Shown here piece after piece: positions 2,762 to 31,452 of a stretch of DNA of 64,000 nt. The number at the start of each line of letters is the position of its first letter. Position 1 is the first letter of the stretch. The notes beneath the pieces were generated by a model. That model made no database searches. It saw only the letters and a list, made by a program, of their open reading frames with translations, and was not told the origin of the DNA. The stretch is taken from IMG/VR virus record IMGVR_UViG_3300031521_000009. One strand, 5' to 3'. The stretch is from a virus. A program made the translations under genes and the position numbers.

Positions 2762-3190
2762 CTAAAATGGAAGGTCCGAACCTTCACCACTACCTACTGG
2801 AATACCACCAGTAACAAATGGTTTTGCTCCACCACTATTTTCATTAGGATAAATAACAGCACCGGCCGGTGGCATCATACTATTACTTTCTGGAATAGGC
2901 ATACCAGGAACATCTGCCGGCACTTCCGGTTTCTGTATGGAAACAATAGTAAGTTCATTGAAATACTTATCTTGCCATGGCTTACCCTTTGTCTCAATCT
3001 CACAATCAATATGCAATGTAGGATTGGCCAAGAAATATTCATGGATGTCAGTAAAACACTTTACACTAAACTCAACATTGTCAATCACACTTTTCACAAT
3101 CCATGTACCAATTGTATAAGGACCATTTTGACCTTCTCCATCATAATTATGGAAATTCTTTACCAACGCTATTCTTTGTACTACTTTCAT
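2762..3190 (-). CDS. DUF3127-family ssDNA-binding (OB-fold) protein
   Basis: KGKPWQDKYFNEL motif, Pro/Gly linker and SSB-type C-terminal tail SDLPF. Confidence 0.75.
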   Translation of the reverse strand: MKVVQRIALVKNFHNYDGEGQNGPYTIGTWIVKSVIDNVEFSVKCFTDIHEYFLANPTLHIDCEIETKGKPWQDKYFNELTIVSIQKPEVPADVPGMPIPESNSMMPPAGAVIYPNENSGGAKPFVTGGIPVGSGEGSDLPF

Positions 3191-3936
3191 CTCTTTGTTC
3201 TATTTGTTCTCCTTTTGGTTCTATTTTGAAATACCATTCTTTTCTCACCATTCTCAACTACCGTATTCCATTCCCAACGATAACGCATTACTTCATAACC
3301 ATAGTTTACTGACAGAAGCAAATGGAATAGCCTATAAGCCTCGATTGGAACCGAAACAGTACCATGGTTCAATAAAGTAATCAACCACGTAGAAAGCATG
3401 TGTGAGTTGTTTATCTGACGTTCATTATCCTTATCAATATCACTCATTATTAAATCAGGGACAAATACCGGAGTAGTCAACAAACCACTAATGATTTGTT
3501 CTTTTTCCAATAAGTTTTCAGATAATGATAAGTTAGTTGCAAACGCCTCAGAAAACTGCCTTTGAGAAGTAGATAATAAATTCTGCAAACTCAATAGAAC
3601 CTTACCTAAATCATCTCTTGAAAAATAAACATCTCCTTTTTTGATACTGTCAATAAAATCTTCTACAGATTCTTTTATAGAAAGAAGACCATCTTCACTA
3701 CTAGAATAAAATTCAATTCTTACACGATAATCAGTAAACTTGATTAAACGAATACCATTAAACTTTTTTACAAAAGTACTTTCAGTAGAACTAAATACTC
3801 TACCACACTTTTGACAACTATACAAATAACTCTCATTACCCCGTGCATCTACTATACTACCATGGAACAATGAACCTCGCGTATCACAACGCCTTACTAA
3901 GCACTTAATAAATGCTCCTAATGAACGATCACTCAT
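3187..3936 (-). CDS. Hypothetical protein with N-terminal Zn-ribbon
   Basis: 249 aa, CQKC motif, upstream TATCTTTG promoter, overlaps the next start. Confidence 0.65.
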   Translation of the reverse strand: MSDRSLGAFIKCLVRRCDTRGSLFHGSIVDARGNESYLYSCQKCGRVFSSTESTFVKKFNGIRLIKFTDYRVRIEFYSSSEDGLLSIKESVEDFIDSIKKGDVYFSRDDLGKVLLSLQNLLSTSQRQFSEAFATNLSLSENLLEKEQIISGLLTTPVFVPDLIMSDIDKDNERQINNSHMLSTWLITLLNHGTVSVPIEAYRLFHLLLSVNYGYEVMRYRWEWNTVVENGEKRMVFQNRTKRRTNRTKR

Positions 3937-23353: not shown

Positions 23354-23483
23354 TTTGGTAAACTTATAGAATTGTCTTTTCTTTGCAGTGTTCAATCGGA
23401 GTGACTATCGAATGAACATTCGGTAGTACCCTTTTGATACACTTAAGACCCCGAAGGAATGTCACTCCCTTTCGGGGTTTTTT
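23354..23483 (+). promoter_or_regulatory. Promoter plus structured leader/attenuator with complementary loops
   Basis: TTTG-N20-TTTCTTTG; GGAGTGAC in hairpin 1 is complementary to GTCACTCC in the terminator loop; stem ACCCCGAAGG/CTTTCGGGGT plus T run. Confidence 0.75.
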
Positions 23484-24327: not shown

Positions 24328-24648
24328 ATGTCAATGAATAAAGAATTAATTGATAAATATGTTTTCAATTCAATTAAATATGGTTCTAAAGCAGAACAAC
24401 TTTTATTGAGTAAATTAATGATGTCTAATATTGATTTTAAATATAAATATAAAGTGCCTAATGATATAACTTATTACATGGCAAATTTTTATATTCCACA
24501 TAAAAATATAATTATCAATATTAGTCTTTCTATAAATGTCAAACAAGCAGAAATTGTCAAAGATGATTTTTGTAAAAGCAAAGGTTTTAAAGTCATTCGT
24601 ATTTTAGAATCAAACATTTCCTCATTTGATATTTCCTCTGTGCTATAA
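24328..24648 (+). CDS. DUF559/Vsr-like endonuclease fold, probably inactive
   Basis: SKAEQLL, YMANFY, IIINIS, KDDFCKSKGFKVIRI. Confidence 0.65.
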   Translation: MSMNKELIDKYVFNSIKYGSKAEQLLLSKLMMSNIDFKYKYKVPNDITYYMANFYIPHKNIIINISLSINVKQAEIVKDDFCKSKGFKVIRILESNISSFDISSVL

Positions 24649-24678
24649 CTGCACAAACAAATCTATATTTATTTTATT

Positions 24679-26349
24679 ATGAATGAAATTGTTCAAATTC
24701 CATTAGTGTATATTGTTGCGTCCAAGTTAAACCCTCGGAAAACAATAAACCAAGACTCTATAATTGAGTTATCACAAAGTATTAAATCAGTAGGGTTGTT
24801 GCAGCCTATTACTGTACGTAAAATTGAAGAAGATGATTATCCAACAAATGATGTTTATGAAGTAATCATGGGTTATCGTCGTTATTGTGCATGTAGTCAT
24901 CTTGGAATGACAACAATGCCATGTATCATTGTAGAAATGGATGATGAAGAAGTACTGGATGCAATGATCATTGAGAACTTACAACGCCAGGATATCGAAC
25001 CTATGGATGAAGCGCGGGCATTTGCTAACCTCAATAACAAAGGTTGGACTGGTGAAGATATTGCTGTAAAGGTTGGTAAGCCGGTTCTATTTGTAATGCA
25101 TAGAATACGCTTGCTTGAGCTTATTGCTGAGTTTGTAAAAATGTTTGATGAAAATGAATTATCCATTTCTCATGCTTATGAATTATGTAAGCTTGACAAA
25201 GATATTCAGTTAGATATTTACAAAACTCGTTATAGCGAAGAAGCCAGTGATTACTATCGGTGGAATGATCTTAATCTAAAAGATTTAAAATCGAAAATAC
25301 AAAATCTTGCAAAGAACTTAGACAATGCTTCTTTTAGCTTGGCTGAGTGTATTACTTGTCAGTTTTGTACTTCTATCCATGGTTCTTTATTCCCGGACTA
25401 CAAAATCAATTCTTGTACTAATAGCTTCTGTTATGATGATAAAATCTTTGAACATCGTATGAACAATATTATTCTTGCACATGAAGAAGATACTACTATT
25501 ATGATTCGTTCATTAGGTACAAGTAATCGGGTTCTTGATAAGCTGAAAGAATTGCATATACCAGTTGTAGTGTTTAGTACCGAAGAATACGATTTTGAGC
25601 ATGATAAGAGCGATGATCTATCCTTTCATGATAAAATGGTCAAGAAAGGATTTGAAGCTGTTTACGGGCTTGATACATGGTCTGGTGGTGATAAGATGTT
25701 TTATATAAAAGCAAAGATTACCAAAAAAGATATTGCTGCTGCAGGAACAGTTCATCCGGAACTTATAAAGCTTGACAAAGACCTTGTTCGTAAAGAGGAA
25801 ATCAAAGAGGAAAAGATTAATGCTGATCTTAGAAGTCTTATTTCCGGTAGTAACTATCGTGAGATAAGTACACCACTACTTCCTATTGAAGAAACTGCTT
25901 TTATGGCTGTCATATTCTATATGGCTTCTAACAGTAAATTAAAAGAGATAAGAACAAAATTCAAGAAAGATTTGTCTTACATGGAAAACATACAAAACAT
26001 GTTACCCGAGGATATTATTACATTGAAACGCTGCTTTATCAAACAATGTATTGTTGGAACAGAAGTAACTCATGATGCAGATGTACAGAATATCCTTTCA
26101 AACATTTCTAATGTCTTTTACTCAGATAAGTTTGGGGAGATTGTCGAAGAACATACGGCTACATGTAACAAACGTAAGGATCGTATTGCTATTCGTAAAC
26201 AAGTCATTCTTGATGAATTGAATCCAGTAAAGAAAGAACTTGTTGAAAAGAAAACAGTATCATTAGCTGATGCTGATGCACAGGTACCTTATATCCCTAA
26301 GCAAAAAGAAGAAAATGAATATGTCAAATTTGGTAACATTGGAGAATAA
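24679..26349 (+). CDS. parB: ParB/Spo0J-family protein (long, PRTRC ParB-like)
   Basis: NPRK, SIKSVGLLQPITVR, GYRRY, IENLQRQDIEPMDEA, HTH. Confidence 0.88.
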   Translation: MNEIVQIPLVYIVASKLNPRKTINQDSIIELSQSIKSVGLLQPITVRKIEEDDYPTNDVYEVIMGYRRYCACSHLGMTTMPCIIVEMDDEEVLDAMIIENLQRQDIEPMDEARAFANLNNKGWTGEDIAVKVGKPVLFVMHRIRLLELIAEFVKMFDENELSISHAYELCKLDKDIQLDIYKTRYSEEASDYYRWNDLNLKDLKSKIQNLAKNLDNASFSLAECITCQFCTSIHGSLFPDYKINSCTNSFCYDDKIFEHRMNNIILAHEEDTTIMIRSLGTSNRVLDKLKELHIPVVVFSTEEYDFEHDKSDDLSFHDKMVKKGFEAVYGLDTWSGGDKMFYIKAKITKKDIAAAGTVHPELIKLDKDLVRKEEIKEEKINADLRSLISGSNYREISTPLLPIEETAFMAVIFYMASNSKLKEIRTKFKKDLSYMENIQNMLPEDIITLKRCFIKQCIVGTEVTHDADVQNILSNISNVFYSDKFGEIVEEHTATCNKRKDRIAIRKQVILDELNPVKKELVEKKTVSLADADAQVPYIPKQKEENEYVKFGNIGE

Positions 26350-27298
26350 TCAATTAGATAAGGATTTAATAAAAGAACACAATGAATTAATCAAATCAAA
26401 AAGCAAATCTCCTAGGATATATGAAATTCGAATGGCCATTTTTAAAAAATATAAATGTACATGGGATGATGAAACCGGATTAATTTATTTAGACCTTGAT
26501 TATAATCCAATTAAAGAAAGTTCAAACAAAAAAGAACAAGTAAAAAAACAAATAAGTGAAATTTCTATGAATGCAAAAAACATATTATTACAATGTACAG
26601 TAGTACAAAATCGCGTATATCTACCGGACGAACAAATCGACCGTAAGCTTTATATGGAAGTTGCAAAAGCGTTAGAACTTATCGGTGGTAAATGGACTGG
26701 TGGTAAAATAAAGGCCTTTGTGTTTGCTGAGGACCCAACAGATTTATTAGCCGAGATAGCTAGTGGTGAAAAACGTAATCTAAAGAAAGAACATCAATTC
26801 TTTGGTACTCCGCCAGAACTTGCTGACAGACTTATAGAACTTGCTCAATTAAACAACTTTGATCGTGTTCTAGAGCCTAGTGCCGGACAAGGTGCTATCG
26901 TTGAAGCAATGCAACGCAAATGGCATAATATCGTGCCTACATGTGTTGAGAATATGGGACTCAATTCTATTGTTCTTACAAAGAAACAGATTACCCATTT
27001 CTTTCAAGACTTTCTTACTTCAGAATGTAGTAAGCCATTTGATAAGGTTATCGCTAATCCACCATTCACAAAGAATCAGGATATTGATCATATCTATAAA
27101 ATGGTAGAAGTCTGTAAACCCGGGGGAATAGTGGTATCATGTGCTTCTAATCATTGGAGAGAATCAAAGAACAAGAAAGAAACTGAGTTCAGAGCTTTTC
27201 TTGATGGTATGGGTGCTGTTATCGAAGAAATACCAGCCGGTACCTTTAAAGAAAGTGGAACTATGATTGCAGCTTGTATTGTAATCATTCATGTATGA
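26315..27298 (+). CDS. N6-adenine DNA methyltransferase
   Basis: Motif I VLEPSAGQGAI, motif IV NPPF, GTFKESGT. Confidence 0.9.
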   Translation: MNMSNLVTLENNQLDKDLIKEHNELIKSKSKSPRIYEIRMAIFKKYKCTWDDETGLIYLDLDYNPIKESSNKKEQVKKQISEISMNAKNILLQCTVVQNRVYLPDEQIDRKLYMEVAKALELIGGKWTGGKIKAFVFAEDPTDLLAEIASGEKRNLKKEHQFFGTPPELADRLIELAQLNNFDRVLEPSAGQGAIVEAMQRKWHNIVPTCVENMGLNSIVLTKKQITHFFQDFLTSECSKPFDKVIANPPFTKNQDIDHIYKMVEVCKPGGIVVSCASNHWRESKNKKETEFRAFLDGMGAVIEEIPAGTFKESGTMIAACIVIIHV

Positions 27299-27504
27299 CA
27301 AACGATAGTACCTTGAATAATGACCTATTTGCTATGTATCAAGAGCAAGAAGCCCTTGAATTTAGTAGATGGGTCAATTCGGTAGAGAAGCATGTAAGTA
27401 CGCTTAAAACGAAGCTATGTAAGTCATGCAACAAAAACAAATTAGAAGTAGTAAGTATGTATAAAGCAGAATGTACAAATTGTCTAACATTAAACTCATT
27501 TTAA
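27295..27504 (+). CDS. Small Zn-ribbon protein
   Basis: CKSC...CTNC. Confidence 0.65.
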   Translation: MTNDSTLNNDLFAMYQEQEALEFSRWVNSVEKHVSTLKTKLCKSCNKNKLEVVSMYKAECTNCLTLNSF

Positions 27505-27505
27505 A

Positions 27506-27769
27506 ATGAAAAGAGAAAATATAAAACGTGCTTCTGAATTAAGTTCTGAAATAACTGGACTTGAACAATTGCTAGAAGATATAAAACTTCAAGAAAAAAC
27601 CAAAATTGTAAGTGGATTTTCAATTATGATTCCAGCAAATAGAAATTCATCTGGAGTTTCTATTACTAGATATATATCAAAAGAAATGAGAGATATATTA
27701 GTAATTCTAGCTAAAAATGAAGTAGAAAGAATTATTGCTGAAAAAGAAAAAGAAATCGAAACACTTTAA
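27506..27769 (+). CDS. Hypothetical protein
   Basis: 87-aa packed ORF. Confidence 0.7.
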   Translation: MKRENIKRASELSSEITGLEQLLEDIKLQEKTKIVSGFSIMIPANRNSSGVSITRYISKEMRDILVILAKNEVERIIAEKEKEIETL

Positions 27770-28068: not shown

Positions 28069-29544
28069 ATGTCAGAAATTAAAATTCATATCAAGAATTA
28101 CAAACTTCTCAAAGAAGGAGAATGGGATTTATCAAATGGTACTATCTTCTTCGCACAAGGCGGAAACAAAAAAGGTAAGACTTCTTTCTTGAATCTTATC
28201 CAAGCACTCATGGAAGTAAAAGATACTACTGTCAATCCAGTAACTTTTGGTGAGAAAGAAGGATTTGCTACCGGTACAATACCTGGCGCTGATGGTTTAC
28301 AATACCAATTTCGTTACGACTTTAATATTGATGGTAAGAACAAATTTCAGTTCATTGCTCCAGACAATAAAGTTGTCAAAGGAATTACTGAAATGCGCGC
28401 TATCTTCAATTATACTCATTTTACATTGGAAGAGTTCTTTGAATGGAGTAAAACAGAACCGGGCCGTGCTAAACAACGTGCTATCTTCATGAACTTACTT
28501 TCAGAAAAAGAACGTGAAGAGATAATGAAAATAGATGCTGAGATTCATCCTACAAAAGGAACAATGATCGATTCGCGTAAAGAATTGAATAAGTCAGTTG
28601 ACTTCTTGAAAAAGAGTATTGACAATATCGTATTCAATCCGGAACAACAAAAACTTATTACTGATGCTCCGGCTATTCAAAAGTTGTTTACTGAACTTAC
28701 TGCTCGTAAAGAAGAGATTGATGAAACAATTAAAGGATTCGATACTTATCAAGTGAAGTTGGATGCAGAAAATGAAAAACTGGATCCACTAAAAAAATCA
28801 CATAATAAGCAAGTGGAAAGTCTTACTAACTCCATTCGTTTTGCCAAAGAAGAAATTGACCGTCTTACCAAAGAATTGGCAGCCGATGAAAAGAAACTGG
28901 AAACTGAGAATGCTGAGTACGAAACTTCTGAAAAAGCAATCACTGCAGCAATCACTGAATTGAATACTAAGTTCGATGTGAAAGTACTTGAAGCTGCAAA
29001 ATTAGAATTAGATGGTGATGGTACTGAAAAGAATATTGGTCTTGCCAAACGATTAGAGATTGGCCAGACAAAAATCAATCAGTATAATCAATTGGATGTA
29101 TTAGTAAAACAAAAAGCAAAGAATGAAGAAGATCATAAAAAGAAGGAAAGTGAAGTTAGTGAGTTGGACGAGAAGATTACGACTCTCCGCACCAAGAAAA
29201 AGGAAATCATCAAAAACAGTCAGAACATGCCGGTTGGTTGGTCGATTGATGATGATTATGTTACTATCGATAATATTCCTTTTCTGGAAACTGATATTTG
29301 TAAGTCGGAAGCGACTGCTGCTATTGCTCAATTGATGATGCGCGTAAATAAGGCTCCATTGATGCTTATGGGCGATGCTGAGGCCTTGGGATATGAAGTA
29401 CTCAATAAGCTTGAGGAAACAGCTAAGAGTCTTGGTAAGGTAATGCTATTCGCTGAACATGTTCGTTCTGCTGATGAAATGCAGTTGGTTGGTTATGATC
29501 AAATCGACCATGAAGTAAAGAAAGAAGATAAAGAATTATTTTAA
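28069..29544 (+). CDS. SMC/Rad50-like coiled-coil ATPase
   Basis: N-terminal Walker A GGNKKGKTS, long coiled coil, C-terminal LMLMGDAEAL. Confidence 0.8.
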   Translation: MSEIKIHIKNYKLLKEGEWDLSNGTIFFAQGGNKKGKTSFLNLIQALMEVKDTTVNPVTFGEKEGFATGTIPGADGLQYQFRYDFNIDGKNKFQFIAPDNKVVKGITEMRAIFNYTHFTLEEFFEWSKTEPGRAKQRAIFMNLLSEKEREEIMKIDAEIHPTKGTMIDSRKELNKSVDFLKKSIDNIVFNPEQQKLITDAPAIQKLFTELTARKEEIDETIKGFDTYQVKLDAENEKLDPLKKSHNKQVESLTNSIRFAKEEIDRLTKELAADEKKLETENAEYETSEKAITAAITELNTKFDVKVLEAAKLELDGDGTEKNIGLAKRLEIGQTKINQYNQLDVLVKQKAKNEEDHKKKESEVSELDEKITTLRTKKKEIIKNSQNMPVGWSIDDDYVTIDNIPFLETDICKSEATAAIAQLMMRVNKAPLMLMGDAEALGYEVLNKLEETAKSLGKVMLFAEHVRSADEMQLVGYDQIDHEVKKEDKELF

Positions 29545-29545
29545 T

Positions 29546-29579
29546 AACTAGAACCTTCTCACTGGTATAGGTAAAGTGA
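29546..29579 (+). promoter_or_regulatory. Repeated 5' UTR motif, copy 1 (pseudoknot-like)
   Basis: AACTAGAACCT..TCACT-GGTATAGGTAA-AGTGA; core ends 14 nt before ATG 29589. Confidence 0.6.
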
Positions 29580-29588
29580 TATTCTATT

Positions 29589-29957
29589 ATGAGTGAAAAT
29601 ACTGGTTCAAGACCTGCAAGTATTGCAGAAGTTATTGCTCCTATTTGCTATCAAGCAAATAAAGCATTTTGCGAAAGTTATGGTGATTATTCTCAAAAAG
29701 ATTGGTATCAAGCCGATGATTGGCAAAAACAAAGTGCTATTAAAGGTGTACAATTTCGTATTGAAAATCCGGATGCTGGACATGATGCACAGCATAATTC
29801 ATGGATGGCTGAAAAAGTTGCTGATGGATGGGTATATGGAGAAAGTAAAAATGCAGAAGCAAAAACTCATTCATGTATTGTTTCTTTCGAACAATTACCT
29901 ATTTTCCAACAAAAGAAGGATGCATTATTCTGTGCTATTGTAGATTCTTTGAAATAA
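29589..29957 (+). CDS. RyR-domain protein
   Basis: QHNSWMAEKVADGWVYG...KTHSCIVSFEQLP..QQKKD. Confidence 0.88.
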   Translation: MSENTGSRPASIAEVIAPICYQANKAFCESYGDYSQKDWYQADDWQKQSAIKGVQFRIENPDAGHDAQHNSWMAEKVADGWVYGESKNAEAKTHSCIVSFEQLPIFQQKKDALFCAIVDSLK

Positions 29958-29986
29958 AACTAAAACCTAGTGCGGTATAGGTAAGC
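29958..29986 (+). promoter_or_regulatory. Repeated 5' UTR motif, copy 2 (pseudoknot-like)
   Basis: AACTAAAACCTAGT-GC-GGTATAGGTAA-GC; core ends 14 nt before ATG 29999. Confidence 0.6.
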
Positions 29987-29998
29987 CAATCAATAATT

Positions 29999-30325
29999 AT
30001 GGATTTTATACAAGCTATCAACACTTATCCAATGATTCAAAGAATTGGATGGAATGGTAACGGACTATTTGTATTTCAACAAATACCTTCTGAAATACCA
30101 ATTTTTGTTGTCCTAAAAATGCAATCATTACCTGAAGCAGTAAAAGATGAATTTGCACGTCGTTTTGAAGTTCCAATGACAAAAGAAGAAGCAAAACCAT
30201 TTTTGTCTATTCGTTACAACAATCAATTAGCAATAGTTGATAAGGAAAACAATATCAATGGATGGGCACCTTCTGTTTCTGATGCATTGGCCGAGGATTG
30301 GATTGGATATATACCGGAGGTTTAA
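29999..30325 (+). CDS. tad2: Tad2/DUF2829-family anti-defence sponge-like protein
   Basis: MDFIQAI, RIGWNGNGLFVF, GWAPSVSDALAEDW. Confidence 0.82.
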   Translation: MDFIQAINTYPMIQRIGWNGNGLFVFQQIPSEIPIFVVLKMQSLPEAVKDEFARRFEVPMTKEEAKPFLSIRYNNQLAIVDKENNINGWAPSVSDALAEDWIGYIPEV

Positions 30326-30326
30326 A

Positions 30327-30692
30327 ATGGGAAAAGTATCAACAATTGATACCAAACGCAATCTTTGTGGTAATTGTAAAAGCAGCTACCCTGATTGCAC
30401 TGGTCAGCCGGAATTTGGCGATAATGTCGGAAATAATAATGTTATCCGATGTAAGAAGTATGTAAAGAAAAAAACAAATGTTGTTCGCGTATCAGTAGGT
30501 GAAGAGTATTTTGTTTATATTTTGAAAAATCAAAATGTTTCTATGAATGATTTCATTTCAAGAAAAAGAGTAGAAACAAACAACACTACAGATAATCTGT
30601 ATTATGAAGTTGGAAACTATTTTCTGACAGAGGGAGATTGCAAATCAGAGATTGAACGAGTAACAAAATTGAAACGTAATGGCACAAGGTAA
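30327..30692 (+). CDS. Cys-rich hypothetical protein
   Basis: NLCGNC..YPDC..FGDNVGNNNVIRC; GNYFLT. Confidence 0.7.
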   Translation: MGKVSTIDTKRNLCGNCKSSYPDCTGQPEFGDNVGNNNVIRCKKYVKKKTNVVRVSVGEEYFVYILKNQNVSMNDFISRKRVETNNTTDNLYYEVGNYFLTEGDCKSEIERVTKLKRNGTR

Positions 30693-31302: not shown

Positions 31303-31305
31303 TTT

Positions 31306-31452
31306 ATGCCAGATAGATATTCAATTAAAAAGAATAAAGAGAATGGATTATTTAATGTTTATTTTGGAACAATGTATTGTTTTACTTATGATACTTATCA
31401 AGAAGCAAAAGACCATATTCAAAATATGAAAAAACGATATAAAAATGAGTAA
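31306..31452 (+). CDS. Small hypothetical protein (48 aa)
   Basis: Manual ORF MPDRYSIKK... fills the gap. Confidence 0.55.
   Translation: MPDRYSIKKNKENGLFNVYFGTMYCFTYDTYQEAKDHIQNMKKRYKNE

Follow-up and report, generated by a model that had tools for sequence, protein, structure and literature searches.

Two consecutive intergenic spacers of one viral genome share a short motif, and the question is what this motif does there. The DNA is a stretch of 64,000 nucleotides (nt) from the IMG/VR virus record IMGVR_UViG_3300031521_000009, here called the window, and the motif stands on its + strand before a RyR-domain gene (copy 1, 29545..29588) and before a Tad2-like gene (copy 2, 29958..29998). A sequence-only reading had proposed a conserved pseudoknot-like RNA, possibly a riboswitch-like one, that co-regulates anti-defence genes, with a phage promoter as the alternative. 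The comparative analysis described here establishes a hairpin with a conserved loop and a variable stem, makes a pseudoknot between this loop and an upstream box plausible, and leads us to favour, tentatively, a portable structure of the polycistronic mRNA that would act in cis on the downstream gene start.

Copy 1 occupies the entire 44-nt spacer and scores 58.9 bits with the covariance model. It is abutted by the stop codon of the preceding ATPase gene (TAA, 29542-29544), directly after which comes a second TAA. The copy contains a box, AACTAGAACCT (29546-29556), whose ACCT (29553-29556) would be the 5′ arm of a box–loop helix, S1. After a TC spacer, the 5′ arm of the loop-closing stem S2, TCACT (29559-29563), leads into the loop GGTATAGGTAA (29564-29574), in which AGGT (29569-29572) would be the 3′ arm of S1; the 3′ arm of S2, AGTGA (29575-29579), and a 9-nt A/T-rich tail (29580-29588) then run up to the ATG at 29589. 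Copy 2 occupies a spacer of 41 nt and scores 44.8 bits. Its box AACTAAAACCT (29958-29968), with ACCTA at 29965-29969, is followed by the spacer AGT, and the two stem arms, GC and GC (29972-29973 and 29985-29986), enclose the same loop GGTATAGGTAA (29974-29984), with TAGGT at 29978-29982; a 12-nt tail separates the stem from the ATG at 29999. The consensus order is therefore AACTARAACCT, 1–3 nt, a variable stem arm, the loop GGTATAGGTAA, the complementary arm, 9–12 nt and ATG. Box and loop are separated by 7 nt in the first copy and by 5 nt in the second, and only the distance from the loop to the ATG, 14 nt in both, is fixed.

The sequence-only reading had thus located both copies correctly: its coordinates hold throughout, the 11-mer is shared by the two spacers and ends 14 nt before the ATG, differing but complementary flanks close the core, and the letters for the proposed ACCT(A)–(T)AGGT pairing are complementary in both copies. 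Its gene names are likewise confirmed by Pfam, the first cassette gene (29589..29957, + strand, 122 amino acids (aa)) matching the RyR family PF02026 at 6e-9 and the second (29999..30325, + strand, 108 aa) the Tad2 family PF11195 at 4e-10. With two covariance models, the two copies are the only sites in the window (45–59 bits, the next matches at 14 bits or less), and the loop 11-mer has no further match on either of its strands at 0 or 1 mismatch. By our own estimate, the chance of both blocks repeating in the same order in two adjacent spacers is ~1e-6.

Copies of the element and their common fold

Thirteen solid copies were collected, in five lineages. They come from a crAss-like clade that shares synteny with the window, from a phage of 129 kb, from an integrative element and from two phages whose hosts use Shine-Dalgarno sequences. 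Several copies are related by descent and several contigs are fragments; public collections were scanned by exact patterns only, and divergent copies were certainly missed. A scan of viral contigs for AACCT, 5–7 nt and the loop gave 102 matches, mostly coding or due to chance, of which only two are real. Both are intergenic and have the same AACCT and loop, closed by the stems TTGCGGT/ACCGCAA (L043) and TGGGGT/ACCCCA (L082). A stricter pattern applied to metagenome contigs yielded three ~93%-identical relatives of the window (L232, L235 and L238) and the unrelated integrative element L236, whose copy, with the stem GTGGGT/ACCCAC and an ATG 9 nt on, has a DNA methylase, an excisionase-like helix-turn-helix protein and a tyrosine integrase as neighbours. 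The 129-kb phage (G005, locus L008) was reached with a covariance model built from four copies. It carries three divergent copies in consecutive spacers, with the stems CGAC/GTCG, TGGT/ACCA and TCGGT/ACCGA and, in the same order, the 9-nt loops GTATAGGTA, GTACAGGCA and ACGTAGGGA. In the clade of the window, L378 has two copies, one before a Tad2-like gene and the other, L378b, before a 93-aa orphan; L379 has one before a Tad2-like gene and L387 one before a 94-aa gene. The single copy of L381 is directly followed by a very short open reading frame (ORF), the next called gene, 95 nt on, being a Cys-rich 123-aa homologue.

There are 1–3 copies per genome, all confined to one cassette hotspot, and neither the window nor G005 has a copy beyond those of its cassettes. 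The other searches added little. In viral contigs, a pattern with a gap of 8–14 nt gave nothing convincing, a Tad2-based locus search found no relatives and a final ATPase-based scan found no additional copy, while a scan for the loop variant GGTATAGGATA gave one possible copy, L480, which the covariance model does not score. Among eight viral contigs with RyR homologues, L008 alone has the motif, and a faint resemblance in L002 is not scored by the model. A pattern scan of species genomes returned 121 matches (L275 being a doubtful one) with stem lengths as expected by chance, and on this ground a general bacterial element was rejected. GenBank phages hold no close DNA relative of the 3.5-kb region and no instance of the motif itself, and a literature search for the 11-mer or the 9-mer retrieved primer coincidences only. 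The motif thus appears to be previously uncatalogued, as does the combination of a conserved hairpin loop and upstream box with a start-fixed intercistronic position, an occurrence in phages of different host phyla and an association with nucleotide-sponge genes.

The same loop is closed by ten distinct stem sequences (ACGGT/ACCGT and ACGAT/ATCGT are further examples). Stems measure 2–7 base pairs (bp) and loops 9–12 nt, the loop carrying UAnAGG and differing in some positions among copies (GGTATAGGATA, AGTATAGGATG, GTACAGGCA, ACGTAGGGA). In a permutation test that allowed any 9–12-nt loop, p lies between 0.002 and 0.1 per copy, except for copy 2 with its 2-bp stem (p = 0.88), and the combined value for the ten copies with distinct stems is 1.4e-8. 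In a plain MAFFT alignment (A5), five of the six stem pairs vary in both partners. Covariation scores 0.282, where shuffles give 0.10 and none of 500 reaches the observed value, and sliding the partner by 1–3 columns lowers the pairing from 77% to 16–48%. The hairpin is established by these data.

The pairing between box and loop is plausible and rests on one compensatory event. The copy at 6510-6554 of L378 is the orthologue of window copy 1 (the neighbouring ATPase is 59% identical) and keeps 33 of its 35 core positions. The two changes, ACCT to ATCT (C to T) and AGGT to AGAT (G to A), fall on exactly one predicted box–loop pair and compensate each other, for which we estimate a chance below 1%. 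This orthologue is the sole exception to the invariance of the central C–G pairs of the helix. In copy 2, where the stem has 2 bp, a 5-bp box–loop helix, ACCUA/UAGGU, is the minimum-energy fold (RNAfold).

A further pairing is specific to copy 1. Its TCACT (29559-29563) has a second AGTGA complement at 29591-29595, in codons 2-3 of the RyR ORF, besides the one at 29575-29579, and at minimum energy (−9.3 kcal/mol, z = −0.7) this copy folds with the motif paired to the RyR start region. Such a pairing is found in no other copy and is probably due to chance.

Placement between genes and a possible start module

The copies fill whole intercistronic spacers of 38–46 nt with nothing else in them, and the upstream stop codon lies 4–9 nt before AACCT. 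In phages without Shine-Dalgarno enrichment, 8 of 11 copies have the base of the hairpin 9 nt before the ATG, and the others have it 10–12 nt before. All 13 copies are on the sense strand of the flanking genes; the start-to-start distance of the two blocks is 18–21 nt, their spacing varying by 2–3 nt. In the closer subclade (ATPase 52–59% identical), the spot after the ATPase gene is a variable hotspot in which nearly every spacer of ~40 nt is the motif, and relatives whose cassette overlaps the ATPase stop/start, or which have no cassette, do not carry it (L380, L382-L386, L388-L395). Both window copies sit within a 12-kb block of co-directional genes with one terminator-like site (23464-23478).

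The translation regimes of the carriers differ. In the window, 6 of 70 starts have a Shine-Dalgarno sequence against a background of 5%, and there is no enrichment in G005, L236 or L378 either, whereas in G001 and G002, the phages of L043 and L082, the figure is 34–47% against a background of 8%. The 11-nt loop and AACCT are nevertheless identical in phages that share no detectable protein and translate under different regimes, which argues for a universal reader or a self-contained fold and points to the ribosome, a polymerase or a metabolite as such a reader.

The covariation of the stems around an invariant loop, the variation of 2–3 nt in block spacing and the strict sense orientation argue for an action in the transcript on the next start, as do the intercistronic position within an operon, the fixed distances to stop and start and the use of the element only where genes are uncoupled. 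The element is also more constrained than its flanking genes: behind it, L378b and L387 have homologous genes of 93 and 94 aa with only 30% identity, whereas the motif itself has kept one stem and an almost unchanged loop, and it is located at exchange points. The reading that we favour, at less than even confidence and from sequence comparison, is that the element is a portable cis-acting structure of the polycistronic mRNA serving the downstream start as a start module or insulator. Its A-rich box, with AACCU at the end, and its hairpin of 2–7 bp would fold into a compact H-type pseudoknot through pairing of CCU/ACCU in the box with AGG/AGGU in the loop. This structure would occupy all of the spacer between genes without translational coupling, with the base of the hairpin at about −10. 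For the cassette gene behind it, it would be a start module complete in itself, holding the A/U-rich start region open and shielding it from upstream sequence; it may also dock onto the small (30S) ribosomal subunit, at the place usually taken by the Shine-Dalgarno helix. A ribosome terminating 4–9 nt before the box would melt it transiently. The short conserved element would also travel with accessory genes and mark the junctions of swaps between phages. RNA as the acting form, translation initiation as the target step and a host-universal partner, the ribosome rather than a phage protein, are what we infer from this pattern.

Several observations weigh against this reading. The box–loop helix shrinks to 2 bp in L378b and L379 and to 3 bp in L381, L387, L008_2 and L008_3, with the one compensatory event in support. 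Of the conserved structured element that the sequence-only reading had proposed, the stem, covarying over ten sequences, stands firmly, and the pseudoknot in part: it has its compensatory double change and, in six copies, only 2–3 pairs. Among ~60 stem pairs of the 13 solid copies there is not one G–U wobble, which is unusual for an RNA family; the single wobble seen is in the uncertain copy L480. RNA and single-stranded DNA both fit as the acting form. The hairpins are weak on their own (local-fold z-scores from −1.5 to +0.9), and need something to stabilise them. Nor is the fixed distance to the start universal: in L043 and L480 the motif is at least 23 nt from the ATG with an ordinary Shine-Dalgarno sequence between (AAGGAG in L043), and in L082 no gene closely follows. 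Finally, the invariant loop fits a sequence-specific reader, be it protein, ligand or polymerase, at least as well as it fits a role through structure alone. Complementarity to or mimicry of 16S rRNA was rejected, the matches found in one Bacteroidales genome being of 6–8 nt and at chance frequency.

The nearest described systems are analogues, not relatives. One is the start-associated sequence (SAS), with its extended form, of Cluster K mycobacteriophages, a 13-bp sequence, GGGATAGGAGCCC, with a Shine-Dalgarno core 3–7 bp from the start, present in up to ~19 copies per genome in that one phage cluster (Pope et al. 2011, PMC3203893). Both elements are short, asymmetric, in one orientation and at a near-fixed distance from the starts of non-structural genes of various families; in both, the upstream stop can fall inside the element and the conserved sequence comes with an inverted repeat. 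A role in translation initiation has been proposed for each. They differ in that the element described here has no Shine-Dalgarno core, what is conserved being the hairpin loop and the upstream box, and in that it occurs in 1–3 copies per genome in unrelated phages of different host phyla. Neither the SAS consensus nor its distance from the start is found at our copies. The element would extend the very short list of cis-signals known from crAss-like and other Bacteroidota phages, whose gene starts without Shine-Dalgarno sequences are still poorly understood.

Downstream genes and alternative explanations

A Tad2-like gene follows three copies (window copy 2, L378 and L379) and a RyR-domain gene two, in two unrelated phages. 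One copy precedes a gene with an Acb2/Tad1 hairpin domain (L008 3975-4262, 95 aa, PF24729, 1e-8), one a holin gene (L043) and one a membrane-like ORF (L008 3691-3936) of 38 to 81 aa, depending on the reading of one TAG; three stand before orphans of 93, 94 and 112 aa, and that of L082 has no close downstream gene. The proposed link to anti-defence genes is hence borne out in part: Tad2-like, RyR and Acb2/Tad1 genes recur behind the motif in unrelated phages, but so do a holin and orphan genes. The idea of a co-regulated regulon falls, given 1–3 copies per genome in a single cassette hotspot.

The best-surviving of the alternatives, itself unlikely, is an RNA operator, in which a trans-acting protein would recognise the conserved loop whatever the stem, and would silence or time the translation of early anti-defence genes. 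Protein operators are classically built in this way, with the loop conserved and the stem variable; the weak hairpins would need a stabilising partner, and the motif precedes Tad2-like, Acb2/Tad1 and RyR genes. Models are provided by Aca1 and Aca2 on the 5′ untranslated regions (UTRs) of acr-aca operons, by RegA of T4 and by gp32, which nucleates on a leader pseudoknot. The last of these, the T4 gene 32 leader, is an autogenous translational operator that lies ~40–70 nt upstream, is bound cooperatively by gp32 and serves one gene. Like that leader, the present element would combine an H-type pseudoknot with an unstructured A/U-rich stretch running into the start codon; it lies nearer to the start and serves several genes, and no sequence similarity is claimed. 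Anti-CRISPR operons have 5′-UTR RNA motifs to which Aca1/Aca2, co-encoded helix-turn-helix regulators, bind to repress translation and with which the regulator's DNA operator overlaps (Feussner et al. 2026, PMC13551039). These motifs too are structured leaders before anti-defence genes of mobile elements, with translational control documented there and proposed here; our element, in contrast, is intercistronic and has no co-occurring regulator that we could find. Against this reading, RyR is the only protein common to the motif-bearing contigs, although several of these are fragments and a partner could lie outside them. ParB, which co-occurs in the crAss-like clade, was discarded since the complete 129-kb G005 lacks it, and the Cys-rich 121-aa protein since it was not found beside either copy of L378 and is present in the motif-less L384. 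A loop identical across host phyla also argues against a phage-specific reader.

Next comes an improbable role at the DNA level, as a cassette junction similar to PeSL that promotes homologous or hairpin-directed recombination, any effect on expression being secondary. In the 93%-identical L232 and L238, a 72-aa gene stands in place of the segment 29591-30323 (RyR gene, copy 2 and Tad2-like gene), and copy 1 is followed by this orphan instead of RyR; the left breakpoint is exactly the ATG after copy 1. One and the same stem type, TCACT, precedes RyR, Tad2-like or the 72-aa ORF, and Tad2-like genes have three motif versions upstream. All stems are pure Watson-Crick, as expected for pairing in DNA. 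Against recombination, the borders of other indels carry no motif, the 11-nt identities are short for homologous exchange, no recombinase co-occurs, and neither the sense orientation, the fixed distance to the ATG nor covarying stems around an invariant loop would be needed. Those other differences, replacements or deletions relative to L229, L232 and L238 at 26247-27305, 27506-27768 and 31303-31441, take in a methyltransferase-like gene and an 87-aa gene.

Two known kinds of cassette boundary were compared. Integron attC sites are bipartite palindromes of at least 57 nt (RYYYAAC ... GTTRRRY) placed 3′ of each cassette and used by the integron integrase; the element is ~35 nt long, has no GTTRRRY on its 3′ side and no common integrase. 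PeSLs (promoter-early stem-loops) of T4-type phages were reportedly described as cassette junctions by Arbiol and colleagues in 2010. The T4-type PeSL is an established precedent, a composite terminator/promoter recognised by the host polymerase (Comeau et al. 2014, PMC4122927). On that account both are small conserved intergenic stem-loop elements, found around the variable accessory genes of hyperplastic regions, and both fall on breakpoints of the indels or replacements that separate close relatives, as at the ATG after copy 1. The present element differs from what is described there in that it shows no host early promoter or terminator consensus, conserves the loop and not the stem, and reaches within 9–12 nt of the ATG.

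A promoter ranks behind the operator and the junction and seems to us doubtful. It would be either a phage-specific two-block promoter or an N4-like hairpin that extrudes as single-stranded DNA and is read by the injected virion RNA polymerase, and it would mean very early expression of the anti-defence genes. Two conserved blocks 18–21 nt apart from start to start are what such a signal might look like, anti-defence genes need immediate expression, and both the window and G005 encode giant virion-type proteins. A consensus scan found no sigma-70-type match (TTGACA-17-TATAAT) on the + strand at either copy, and in the region 69 promoter-like sites against 70.7 expected, no excess. The Bacteroidota promoter has TTTG at −33 and TAnnTTTG at −7, and neither spacer contains it by eye. 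N4 promoters have a 5–7-bp stem and a 3-nt loop, occur as a few copies at the early end and start ~11 nt from the loop, whereas loops here measure 9–12 nt and stems 2–7 bp. The resulting leader would be 9–12 nt only, the copies number 1–3 per genome with none elsewhere in the window or in G005, and the motif also occurs in the integrase-bearing L236 and, before a holin gene, in a phage of a Shine-Dalgarno-using host. The virion polymerase of the crAss-like phage phi14:2 does transcribe denatured DNA, but no common motif was found upstream of its early transcripts and its middle promoters are sigma-70-like (bioRxiv 10.1101/2020.03.07.982082), so that this study of one phage, from which others may differ, gives the motif no support. 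With variable block spacing, covarying stems and copies inside a 12-kb block in addition, the promoter offered as the alternative by the sequence-only reading is not favoured. As to termination, an intrinsic terminator would have a G+C-rich stem with a short loop and a U tract directly behind it, and neither copy is called as one. All copies in phages that lack Shine-Dalgarno enrichment are without a T run after the stem; in L043 and L082, T-rich stretches begin 3–6 nt behind it.

Very unlikely in our estimate is a riboswitch-like aptamer, whose pseudoknot would bind a small molecule (an immune signalling nucleotide, a NAD or ADP-ribose derivative or a 7-deazaguanine precursor, for example) and tune the sponge gene behind it. 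The ~35-nt size, the H-type pseudoknot, the invariant loop and tail nucleotides and the free choice of stems are reminiscent of the smallest aptamers such as preQ1-I (RF00522), a ~34-nt H-type pseudoknot with an A-rich single strand, which lies 3′ of the hairpin there and 5′ here. An identical core across host phyla would suit a universal ligand, and three sponge-family genes in two unrelated lineages lie downstream. However, the folds of eight copies contain no conserved alternative pairing or expression platform, the fold of copy 1 onto the RyR start not recurring, and the riboswitch-like switch of the sequence-only reading finds no support in them. Loop positions vary, the box–loop helix often has just 2–3 bp, and the motif also precedes a holin gene and orphans. 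Rfam 15 has no family at gathering score anywhere in the window on either strand, and for 29400-30100 at E up to 10 it gives two unrelated weak matches, both outside the motif. Similarly remote is the more specific idea that the aptamer senses an abortive-infection nucleotide (gcADPR, cyclic oligonucleotides, NAD/ADPR) and switches on Tad2-like, Acb2/Tad1 and perhaps RyR genes, which would let phages make the antidote only once the alarm is raised. A bold reading would have the motif RNA itself act as a decoy titrating a host defence protein. A frameshift, readthrough or bypass signal was rejected by eye: no slippery heptamer is present, two frames contain stops, the genes downstream lie in a different frame, and take-off and landing codons that match each other are missing.

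The cassettes and their surroundings

The window, at ~32% G+C, looks like part of a crAss-like phage. A + strand block of replication and accessory genes extends from ~6 to 35.6 kb, the − strand carries giant ORFs of 1725 and 5834 aa, and no tRNA or tmRNA was found. Upstream of copy 1, an AAA-type ATPase gene (SbcC/AAA_15-like, 28069..29544, + strand, 491 aa) matches PHROG 1499, with homologues carrying PF13175 and PF13476, and is syntenic in L378-L395. Downstream, a conserved Cys-rich gene (30327..30692, + strand, 121 aa) adjoins the cassettes without a spacer and forms the right edge of the variable segment; it has homologues in L232, L379, L381, L387 and L384 and none at the corresponding place in L378.

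The hotspot after the ATPase gene spans 29545-30325 in the window, 6510-8727 in L378, 6452-7353 in L379, 6456-8325 in L381 and 5452-6110 in L387. It holds Tad2-like and RyR genes, Tad3 (PF25185; in L378 and L381, a few genes further on) and orphan ORFs of 64–173 aa, which are candidates for new anti-defence genes. The motif could serve as a handle in the search for such genes among the orphans behind it.

In G005 (IMG/VR 3300025913_000022), the gene with the Acb2/Tad1 domain at 3975-4262 of L008 adjoins a GroES-like gene (3327-3650) and the RyR-domain gene (2818-3321), which suggests a small anti-defence cluster in an unrelated phage. This RyR gene has an in-frame TAG where the window has Q (EPW*QDS against DDWQKQS), so the codon could be read as Gln or the gene could be broken. 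The large ORFs of G005/L008 are free of TAG, and in two adjacent small genes TAG may be a true stop.

Two further non-coding features were seen in the clade. A GTGC/GCAC hairpin with the loop TATAACT, GTGCTATAACTGCAC, lies ~25 nt upstream of the ParB-like gene in the window (24640-24654), L379 (1968) and L381 (3000), and may be an operator or leader of that gene. Long non-coding spacers in L379 (1465-2004), L381 (1969-2153) and L387 (959-1477), and also in L380, L384, L388 and L393, share the blocks AAAGAAATTAAGG, TTTGAAAACTCTGAC and GGTTTTCTCTTTTAT, which are absent as exact blocks from the window; their conservation suggests a non-coding RNA or an origin-like region in this clade.

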